From NCBI RefSeq assembly GCF_000027125.1, contig NC_017626.1: DNA of 64,000 bases. One strand, written 5' to 3'. Shown piece after piece: positions 41,401-43,150 of this stretch (position 1 is its first letter; each line of letters opens with the position of its first letter). The DNA comes from Escherichia coli 042. Its GTDB lineage: Bacteria; Pseudomonadota; Gammaproteobacteria; Enterobacterales; Enterobacteriaceae. The position numbers are program-made.

Positions 41401-43150
41401 ACCATTCAAACCCTTGGCGGCTCAGGGGCATTGAAAGTGGGCGCAGATTTCCTGAAACGCTACTTCCCGGAATCAGGCGTCTGGGTCAGCGATCCTACCT
41501 GGGAAAACCACGTAGCAATATTCGCCGGGGCTGGATTCGAAGTGAGTACTTACCCCTGGTATGACGAAGCGACTAACGGCGTGCGCTTTAATGACCTGTT
41601 GGCGACGCTAAAAACATTACCTGCCCGCAGTATTGTGTTGCTCCACCCATGTTGCCACAACCCAACGGGTGCCGATCTCACTAATAACCAGTGGGATGCG
41701 GTGATTGAAATTCTCAAAGCCCGCGAGCTTATCCCATTTCTTGATATTGCCTATCAAGGATTTGGTGCCGGTATGGAAGAGGATGCCTACGCCATTCGCG
41801 CCATTGCCAGCGCTGGATTACCCGCTCTGGTGAGCAATTCGTTCTCGAAAATTTTCTCCCTTTACGGCGAGCGCGTTGGCGGACTTTCTGTTCTGTGTGA
41901 AGATGCCGAAGCTGCAGGCCGCGTACTGGGGCAATTGAAAGCAACAGTTCGCCGCAACTACTCCAGCCCGCCGAATTTTGGTGCGCAGGTGGTGGCTGCG
42001 GTGCTGAATGACGAGGCATTGAAAGCCAGCTGGCTGGCGGAAGTAGAAGAGATGCGTACTCGCATTCTGGCGATGCGTCAGGAACTGGTGAAGGTATTGA
42101 GCACAGAAATGCCAGAACGCAATTTCGATTATCTGCTTAATCAGCGCGGTATGTTCAGTTATACCGGTTTAAGTGCCGCTCAGGTTGACCGACTACGTGA
42201 AGAATTTGGTGTCTATCTCATCGCCAGCGGTCGCATGTGTGTCGCCGGGTTAAATACGGCAAATGTACAACGTGTGGCAAAGGCGTTTGCTGCGGTGATG
42301 TAATGCAGGAAAGCAGGCTGGAGTTACCCAGCCTGCAGTGAAATTAAACTGTTGTCGCTTTCACTCTTGCTTTATAGATGATTTTTTTGATGCCATCGTT
42401 CTACGTGAGAGGTAATAAAACGTTGTTAGTTCTAACTTGTTAAGTTTATCCCAATGTTCTGGAGTGCTTTTCCCTGTTTTACCGTGTGGAATAATAATTT
42501 TTCCACATCTAACCATTATTAAATTTAATAATAAGTATCGGGTTTGTTACGATAGAATTTTTCTATATCCTCAAGAATATGCTTTGCCTTATTGCCTGTG
42601 ACTATCTGAGATTCAATTATAGTATCGTTAAATTCTAAAGTTAAAGAGAACTCTTTTTTTCCGCTTTGTGTAAGTTTAACCTTATATTGATTACCAATAT
42701 CAAATAAAAAGGTCCTGTAATGAGAATAATCACCTTTAACCTCCTCGGCAAAACAGCAAAGCGTGCAAATATACATACAATCTTTCTTACCCCTGATTTT
42801 GTTAACTAAATCAATAAATGCGTGAAAAACTGTACTTGCAATAGAACTTGATACTTCTTCTCCAGGTCTACAAAAATCTTTTGCAATTTTTAACTGTGTT
42901 TCTATATATAAAAAGAGATCTTTGGCATAAGAGAAATCTTTGGCATAAGAGATACCTTTGTTATTTAGTGTATCTAGCTCTACAGGTAAAGATGTCGTGT
43001 TGTTGCTATTCACATTTGATATATTCATATCATCATCTCCTTCGGGAGTAATAAAATTAGTCACCATTGTAGGGTAGGGGGCTGGTCAATCAGAAATCAT
43101 CTTTATAAACTTCGATTGTTTTTGTAATGCTGTATCATTAAGTTTATTAA

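Follow-up and report, generated by a model that had tools for sequence, protein, structure and literature searches.

In Escherichia coli, the interval between tyrB and aphA has been described with different contents. In strain CFT073 the c5032-c5041 kguS/kguR island is inserted between these two genes (PMC3694859), and in K-12 the tyrB/yjbS region is listed among the H-NS-bound 'promoter islands' predicted to be of foreign origin (PMC3661553). The K-12 yjbS product is a 67-aa uncharacterised protein (WP_001321562.1). We analysed the corresponding interval in a 64,000-nt stretch of E. coli 042 DNA (contig NC_017626.1 of assembly GCF_000027125.1; hereafter the window), in which an AT-rich islet carries, on the minus strand, a 167-aa open reading frame (ORF) with an in-frame 18-bp tandem repeat. 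The explanation that we hold to be probable is that this ORF is an intact copy of yjbS, a gene restricted to E. coli and Shigella, that its repeat varies among strains, and that the gene is weakly selected and is being lost lineage by lineage.

The islet, delimited by base composition and genome comparison, fills the tyrB-aphA gap from 42304 to 43290 (about 1 kb, 32.5% GC), and the GC fraction was 0.30-0.33 over 42400-43300 vs about 0.52-0.56 in tyrB and 0.48-0.50 in aphA. The longest minus-strand reading, counted from the first ATG, spans 42525..43067 and comprises 180 aa. Because the upstream ATG (43065-43067) has no Shine-Dalgarno sequence, while a directly read AAGGAG (43037..43042, minus strand) stands 8 nt 5' of the second ATG (43026-43028), the second start was preferred. 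The same AAGGAG was conserved upstream of the second ATG in six of six aligned loci. With this start, chosen on the ribosome-binding site, the ORF listing and the alignment to the K-12 yjbS locus give a full-length yjbS coding sequence (CDS) at 42525..43028 (minus strand, 167 aa plus stop), 167 aa is the likely product, and the optional 13-codon in-frame N-terminal extension MVTNFITPEGDDD (43029..43067, minus strand) is probably not translated. Public gene callers use either start and report 167 or 174/180 aa. The longest stop-free stretch in the islet was 186 codons, compared with a mean of 69 and a maximum of 159 in 2,000 shuffles, and the probability of meeting no stop across 167 codons at the base composition of the islet was about 1.2e-6. 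The identical 167-aa protein is encoded by 756 public contigs, where it bears the name 'hypothetical protein' (UniRef A0A0N8J281), and its cluster also has Shigella flexneri and S. sonnei members. The predicted protein has a mass of 19.2 kDa and a pI of 6.3, and it contains five Cys, among them those of a CTLCCF motif (ICTLCCF). Thus the description given by the first-pass annotation, an ORF of roughly 167 aa with a consensus ribosome-binding site and several Cys in a low-GC islet, was borne out in each of these respects.

The relation of this ORF to K-12 yjbS was apparent from alignment of the whole gap. The window matched K-12 over 1,131 nt at 94% identity, with tyrB and aphA on the flanks and with the same strand and start codon, and the locus aligned end to end with tyrB-yjbS-aphA of K-12 and other strains at 92-100% identity. 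Because position, orientation and collinear DNA across the entire gap all match K-12, we read the window ORF as an intact, full-length allele of K-12 yjbS (b4621-type locus). The K-12 allele differs by one repeat unit fewer, a 1-bp deletion in GATTTTTGT, and a slip from seven to six A residues in a homopolymer farther along the gene. The deleted base, placed at 42871 (minus strand) by alignment and three-frame translation, is the G (coding strand) of GATTTTTGTAGA, and its loss truncates the protein to 67 aa. The K-12 segment MNISYVNSNKTTSLPVELDALNNKDISYAKDFFLYIETQLKIAKDF corresponds to residues 1-51 of the window protein, minus one repeat unit and with a few substitutions, and the remainder of the protein was recovered from the other two K-12 frames by three-frame translation. 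The 67-aa YjbS of K-12 is therefore a frameshift stump that consists of the first 45 codons followed by out-of-frame sequence. Because this stump serves as its model, the Prokaryotic Genome Annotation Pipeline (PGAP) mislabels intact alleles, and stop-free genes of 160-173 aa are entered as 'hypothetical protein, frameshifted'; in some cases an additional 84-aa CDS is annotated, which splits the gene into a CDS and a pseudogene. The statement in the first-pass annotation that K-12 has only a short ORF at this place was right, since that ORF is the 67-aa yjbS; that the window ORF is itself the intact form of yjbS had gone unseen. The gene has a name and the protein is public, and the useful points are the truncation in K-12, the mislabelling and the old, common duplication.

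To place the window allele among its relatives, the islet region (42300-43430) was searched by megablast against 5,426 complete E. coli genomes, and 21 alleles (that of the window and 20 fetched loci) were read individually. The islet was present in 4,378 of the 5,426 genomes (~80%), always between tyrB and aphA.

The 18-bp repeat lies at 42914..42960 (minus strand), where Tandem Repeats Finder reported a period of 18 with 2.6 copies, 89% matches and a score of 73, in agreement with a second repeat search. It contains two full units in the window, each encoding the hexapeptide SYAKD[F/L/I]. The 17-mer atctttggcataagaga occurs in exactly two plus-strand copies, at 42918-42934 and 42936-42952, 18 nt apart, and the peptide across the repeat reads ...NNKGI-SYAKDF-SYAKDL-FLYIE.... 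Among the 21 alleles, one unit was found in K-12, EC17CM7, O157, D8 and 19KM1776; the window and 13 other alleles had two, F344 and 18SZHZ655Rt had three, and each of the three states occurred on at least two allele backgrounds. With diagnostic blastn queries built so that a wrong copy number could not reach 80% coverage, the one-copy form was assigned to 2,075 complete E. coli genomes and the two- or three-copy form to 2,272, which together make up 4,347 of the 4,378 islet carriers. The two-copy state was the commonest, at about half of carriers (some 2,220-2,260 genomes). For three copies, only exact single-piece matches were used, since pieces from two-copy genomes are otherwise joined and confound the query; 11 records matched in this way, and one more matched at 98% identity, which makes at least 12. 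The two-copy query matched at two overlapping positions in 50 genomes, so that three copies are present in roughly 0.3-1% of carriers. The in-frame repeat is thus a coding variable-number tandem repeat (VNTR) whose copy number varies among strains and has changed more than once.

The age of the duplication was judged from the distribution and divergence of its units. In two-copy alleles the units have diverged by lineage, with TTC/CTC in the window, a GCC-to-TCC change in one group and a GCC-to-GCT change in another. Because the two-copy state is common, stands on divergent backgrounds and has units with lineage-specific substitutions, we take it to be old and not newly arisen in this strain. 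In 18SZHZ655Rt all three units are mutually identical, which suggests a recent gain, and the single unit of K-12 is the expected product of a one-unit deletion from its closest two-copy relatives. The recurrent process is the gain and loss of units. The first-pass annotation had described the SYAKDF/SYAKDL duplication at about 42916-42952 and had raised the possibility of length polymorphism between strains, and both hold, the latter as one, two or three copies across E. coli genomes. Its attribution of the duplication to a recent slipped-strand event does not stand, as the two-copy state is found in about half of carriers and its units have diverged by lineage, and its concern about an assembly artefact is answered by the same two-copy array in ~2,270 independent complete genomes.

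The integrity of the reading frame differed among the alleles. An open frame of 160-173 aa was found in 15 of the 21, and the other 6 were broken. The main frameshift hotspot is an A7 homopolymer at 42654..42660 (minus strand, codons GKK). Allele-specific megablast found the A7-to-A6 change in 1,708 complete genomes, with K-12 and EC17CM7 among the A6 alleles, and a 10-bp deletion at the same A-run in 309 O157:H7-type genomes, in which 119 aa are left (ECs_5773 in Sakai). The other lesions were the deleted G confined to K-12, a deleted T in EC17CM7, a 1-bp insertion in 18SZHZ655Rt, a deleted G in the AATGAG of 1297KP and 19AR0254, which lies at or beside the A-run, and, in other genomes, insertions of the elements IS1 and IS3. 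Altogether at least five independent events have inactivated yjbS. The A6 form occurs on one-copy backgrounds and on at least one two-copy background (strain CAVP776), a pattern that suggests either repeated slippage or allelic recombination. About 24 of 48 sampled carriers (an evenly spaced ranked sample plus the fetched sequences) look intact, from which we estimate, not as a census, that about half of carriers, or ~40% of all complete genomes, keep the frame. The number of intact alleles was bounded and not counted, as an A7-specific megablast returned no matches, probably on account of low-complexity masking. On the possibility raised in the first-pass annotation that the ORF is disrupted in most strains, the outcome is divided: no fewer than 2,017 of the 4,378 carriers (46%; A6 plus the 10-bp deletion) have a frameshift, and in roughly the other half the frame is open.

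Selection was assessed from sequence variation. Among the 15 intact copies there are 12 distinct alleles, which differ at 54 sites. Pairwise Nei-Gojobori dN/dS among these alleles ranged from 0.15 to 0.60. In a mutation-spectrum-aware test, 24 of 68 variants were synonymous where 17.0 were expected (p = 0.039), and one of the 68 created a stop in the reference frame where 3.5 were expected; this one stands at a deletion-adjacent, ambiguously aligned site of an already frameshifted allele. All indels in the intact alleles were multiples of 3: whole units of the repeat, and 3 bp that strain D8 has lost. Constraint on the frame thus appears weak but detectable, and it would fit a dispensable gene that functions in some lineages.

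The restriction of yjbS to E. coli and Shigella was examined by searches of several kinds. No family match was obtained in Pfam, NCBIfam or PADLOC, in keeping with the first-pass description of an orphan protein with no recognisable domain, and the two matches obtained in PHROGs were not significant (E = 0.008 and 0.19). A word-indexed search of 5.8 billion protein clusters returned only E. coli/Shigella relatives. Matches from that search that had looked divergent, at 54-74% identity, were rejected as distant homologues, being frameshifted translations of yjbS itself. When 1.84 billion representatives were searched exhaustively with a HMMER profile, 27 matches were obtained, all of them fragments of yjbS, and a search of PDB sequences gave nothing significant (best match SipA, E = 0.6). 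A peptide-pattern scan of 100,044 species genomes, one per species, found only a K-12 contaminant, the 9.5-kb contig NZ_JAUFQN010000013.1 in the Flavobacterium paronense CECT 8460 assembly, which consists of K-12 tyrB-yjbS-aphA DNA and has scattered single-base indels resembling long-read errors. No phage copy of yjbS was found by tblastn, and eight 'plasmid' matches were rejected as plasmid copies, because the entries are whole chromosomes or pieces of them that were deposited under the label of plasmids. As far as these collections reach, yjbS appears confined to E. coli and Shigella, with no detectable relatives.

The genomes that do not carry the islet have other DNA at the same site. In 19 of them the gap is a 336-bp spacer; in the spacer genome that was inspected, pnuC and an AAA ATPase gene lie upstream of tyrB in place of alr. 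In the remaining ~1,030 genomes, which are of B2 type, tyrB and aphA are too distant for one joined match. In the O16:H6 genome inspected, the 7 kb upstream of aphA encode a sigma-54 two-component system, a DASS transporter and an Ldh-family oxidoreductase, along with succinyl-CoA-ligase-like genes. This content agrees with the c5032-c5041 kguS/kguR island described in CFT073 (PMC3694859), and by extension from this one locus the ~1,030 B2-type genomes would probably have the kguSR island as well. Genomes with and without the islet become alignable again ~120-140 nt upstream of aphA, at about 43291-43310 of the window, and no direct or inverted repeats, tRNA or integrase were found at the islet boundaries. 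From its composition and patchy distribution, the islet was presumably acquired horizontally. Several natural genomes have insertion sequences (IS) of the IS1 and IS3 types between or near tyrB and aphA, in the tyrB-aphA region; these, together with the two IS1 insertions into yjbS reported from a macrophage-adaptation experiment (PMC4999529), suggest that the tyrB-aphA region is an insertion hotspot.

The predicted structure gives a context for the position of the repeat. AlphaFold2, run on a shallow alignment, returned a mean predicted local distance difference test score (pLDDT) of 60 and a predicted template modelling score (pTM) of 0.60. Residues 1-39 were disordered (pLDDT <50), followed by helices at 30-52, 61-77 and 84-92, a beta-sheet at ~95-144 and a C-terminal helix at 145-160, with a pLDDT of 80-89 over residues 110-160. 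No membrane segment was predicted (maximum Kyte-Doolittle 19-residue window, 0.89), nor was a signal peptide. The repeat encodes residues 27-38, at the border between the low-confidence N-terminus and the start of the first predicted helix, and on this model one unit would amount to ~1.7 helical turns gained or lost at the edge of the fold.

These observations can be joined in a proposed mechanism. Copy number would change by replication slippage or by unequal recombination between the 18-bp direct repeats, and such changes would be tolerated because the units code for the place where the N-terminus, rich in Asn, Ser and Thr and modelled with low confidence, joins the first helix of a small alpha/beta domain. 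H-NS would normally silence yjbS, as reported for the K-12 islet, and we propose that purifying selection on the gene is weak because it is normally silenced in this way. Loss of yjbS would then proceed lineage by lineage, mostly through slippage of the A7 tract. Our best guess is that YjbS is a dispensable, conditionally expressed soluble protein that works where the frame is open. In K-12, yjbS had no transposon insertions in a dense TraDIS (transposon-directed insertion-site sequencing) library and was classed as 'essential only by TraDIS' (PMC5821084); H-NS is not mentioned in that study, and it is our inference that the insertion gap is linked to occupancy by a silencing protein.

Several results weigh against this account. 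At least 46% of the carriers have a frameshifted gene, and the figure of half intact rests on the evenly spaced ranked sample and the two allele-specific counts. The purifying-selection signal is weak, with a spectrum-aware omega of ~0.64 and a p of only 0.04, and the antisense frame equals the sense frame on synonymous counts. The presumed horizontal origin is drawn from composition and patchy distribution, and no donor was found among the species genomes, phages and plasmids searched. The H-NS and TraDIS data are from K-12 and not from a strain with an intact allele, and no expression or protein evidence for full-length YjbS was found in the sources searched. The data would agree, too, with a gene that has no function in any strain and that some lineages have simply not yet lost to decay. 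Such a relic of a foreign gene, whose open frames survive because of the short time elapsed and whose changes are neutral, is in our judgement unlikely, albeit deserving of serious weight. The five or more independent lesions, the high share of frameshifted carriers, the weak constraint (omega ~0.2-0.6), the tolerated IS insertions, the binding of the K-12 islet by H-NS, and the absence of the islet from ~20% of genomes, in which nothing obviously replaces its function, would all be expected of it. What it accounts for poorly is that stops arise easily in DNA of 32% GC, yet 12 distinct alleles, different from one another at many sites, keep an open frame, with an excess of synonymous variants, a deficit of stop-creating ones and retained indels that are all multiples of 3. 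A contingency (phase-variable) locus, in which the tracts switch yjbS or vary its protein at high frequency, would draw on the same slippage, since two slippage-prone tracts, the 18-bp repeat and the A7, lie in one small gene, copy-number changes recur, and A7-to-A6 is found on one-copy and some two-copy backgrounds. However, the 18-bp unit is a multiple of 3 and thus unable to shift the frame, by the standard of phase-variation tracts A7 is short, only one to three units occur and no long arrays, and the OFF state is fixed in large clades (the 1,708 A6 genomes) with further lesions in K-12 and EC17CM7, which makes it irreversible; we consider this explanation very improbable.

Two further explanations assign YjbS a specific role. 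That it is an orphan immunity or antitoxin gene from a polymorphic-toxin, Rhs or contact-dependent growth inhibition (CDI) module, kept against the toxins of neighbours, would agree with a small, cytoplasmic, AT-rich, strain-variable, lineage-restricted and homologue-free profile and with the small broken ORFs that flank yjbS. There is, however, no toxin gene or remnant upstream, where the 340 nt to aphA gave no family match; no immunity, antitoxin or defence family was detected with PADLOC, Pfam or NCBIfam; no Rhs, CDI or type VI secretion system genes lie nearby; and the gene occupies a single fixed chromosomal site with no cassette diversity and with alleles 87-99% identical, so that we give this origin very little credence. 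The other is that full-length YjbS is a cryptic, effector-like substrate of type III secretion through the locus of enterocyte effacement (LEE) or E. coli type III secretion system 2 (ETT2). Its first 25 residues are 52% Ser/Thr/Asn, with no charge in the first 16, vs a maximum of 36% among 41 long ORFs of the window, although such Asn/Ser richness is also a product of AT-rich codons. The islet stands between espX4 (ECs_5021, ~17 kb away) and EspX5 (ECs_5048, ~13 kb away), both 'T3SS effector-like' (T3SS, type III secretion system) in O157 Sakai, and the EspX4 protein of the window is identical to the entry for enteroaggregative E. coli (EAEC) 042, a strain that we take to have an intact ETT2. 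The first non-self Foldseek matches in AFDB50 were unnamed proteins, 135-531 aa long, from E. coli, Shigella and Salmonella (E 1e-4 to 1e-2; among them A0A6L9AAB8, A0AAW5ZGU2, A0AAN3TTQ2, A0A2X2HGS0, A0A5W0JRV5, B7NEY7, A0A376VBI9 and Q8XC25), at 12-16% identity and with poor root-mean-square deviation. Against this, hhalign gave a probability of <1% with the EspX5 N-terminus (0.3%) and with the DUF2713 family, hmmsearch against all 402 window ORFs gave nothing, and BLASTP against EspX4, EspX5 and DUF2713 gave E >=0.05; no homology to known effector families was found in Pfam, NCBIfam or PDB sequences or by hhalign and BLASTP. Moreover, the YjbS model is of low overall confidence, the model of the EspX5/YjcF N-terminus (pLDDT 36) was unusable for a reciprocal fold search, and in the O157:H7-type genomes, whose LEE is functional, all 309 copies of yjbS are truncated. 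We regard secretion of YjbS as improbable, and slightly more so the fuller proposal that it founds a new effector family of ETT2/LEE in which the hexapeptide repeat tunes an N-terminal secretion or chaperone-binding region. If it were true, the truncations in K-12 and O157:H7 would be part of the known decay of the accessory effector repertoire, and a YjbS that is secreted or otherwise active would represent a new family. The weakly selected, lineage-by-lineage loss of an intact yjbS remains the explanation that we prefer.

The rest of the islet contains few other features. A GC-rich hairpin, GCAGGCTGG-agttac-CCAGCCTGC, lies at 42313..42336, just past the tyrB stop, and is conserved in all aligned loci. 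It has no T-run on the plus strand and so escapes a terminator scan, and it probably terminates both of the convergent transcripts, that of tyrB and that of yjbS. A small 51-aa ORF of doubtful status (42361..42516, minus strand) is directly downstream of yjbS in a divergent patch; it had no family match and is open only in window-type alleles, with an in-frame stop in K-12 and JCKP02 and a frameshift in O157. The patch at ~42430-42500 diverges from K-12 far more than its surroundings and could derive from recombination with a divergent source or be the relic of a second gene. Promoter-like sites in the window numbered 5 vs 5.1 in shuffles, and an Rfam scan identified no RNA family (SurA small RNA match, 18 bits vs a gathering threshold of 100).

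Elsewhere in the window, three loci of similar setting were recorded. A 526-aa SopA-family/pentapeptide-repeat protein (NF007264, PF13981) is encoded at 24691-26271 on the plus strand; it corresponds to espX4 in Sakai and is identical to D3GT19_ECO44. At 34310-35302 (plus strand), an AT-rich islet holds an intact DUF2713-family ORF of 330 aa that in K-12 is the frameshifted pseudogene yjbL/yjbM, which makes it a second case in the window in which the reference K-12 has the broken form. The EspX5/yjcF pentapeptide-repeat gene (55799-57091, minus strand) is split into ORFs of 265 aa (56294-57091) and 110 aa (55799-56131), vs 430 aa in most strains, and is thus a pseudogene in this strain.

The practical consequence of these results is that the K-12 product is a truncation and that annotation built on it mislabels the intact gene in ~2,000 complete E. 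coli genomes, so that pan-genome and pseudogene statistics for the yjbS locus are inverted by the PGAP model. The locus is also a compact and well-sampled case of a silenced, lineage-restricted orphan in decay, with slippage, a drifting repeat, IS hits and replacement of the islet in B2, and the 18-bp repeat and the lesions might be used as simple lineage markers.

Compared with known systems, the yjbS repeat resembles the coding VNTRs of other bacterial genes in that its unit is a multiple of three, its copy number is strain-variable, its changes recur and it falls in a region predicted to be permissive. It differs from them in its range of only one to three units and in its place within a cytoplasmic protein, and, unlike the repeats of surface proteins, it showed no evidence of selected variation. 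The kguS/kguR alpha-ketoglutarate island of uropathogenic E. coli is an alternative content of the same tyrB-aphA site, yet it consists of unrelated genes with a demonstrated function and has no sequence in common with the yjbS islet. Within the window there is a likeness to the espX4/yjbI, yjbL-yjbM (DUF2713) and EspX5/yjcF islets. YjbS has no sequence or profile similarity to their proteins, no pentapeptide repeats and no Pfam family, but these islets are likewise short, low in GC, set among core genes and confined to E. coli and close relatives, and they too hold genes that some strains keep whole while others have frameshifts in them; several of the islets are listed, like the yjbS islet, as H-NS-bound in K-12 (PMC3661553).

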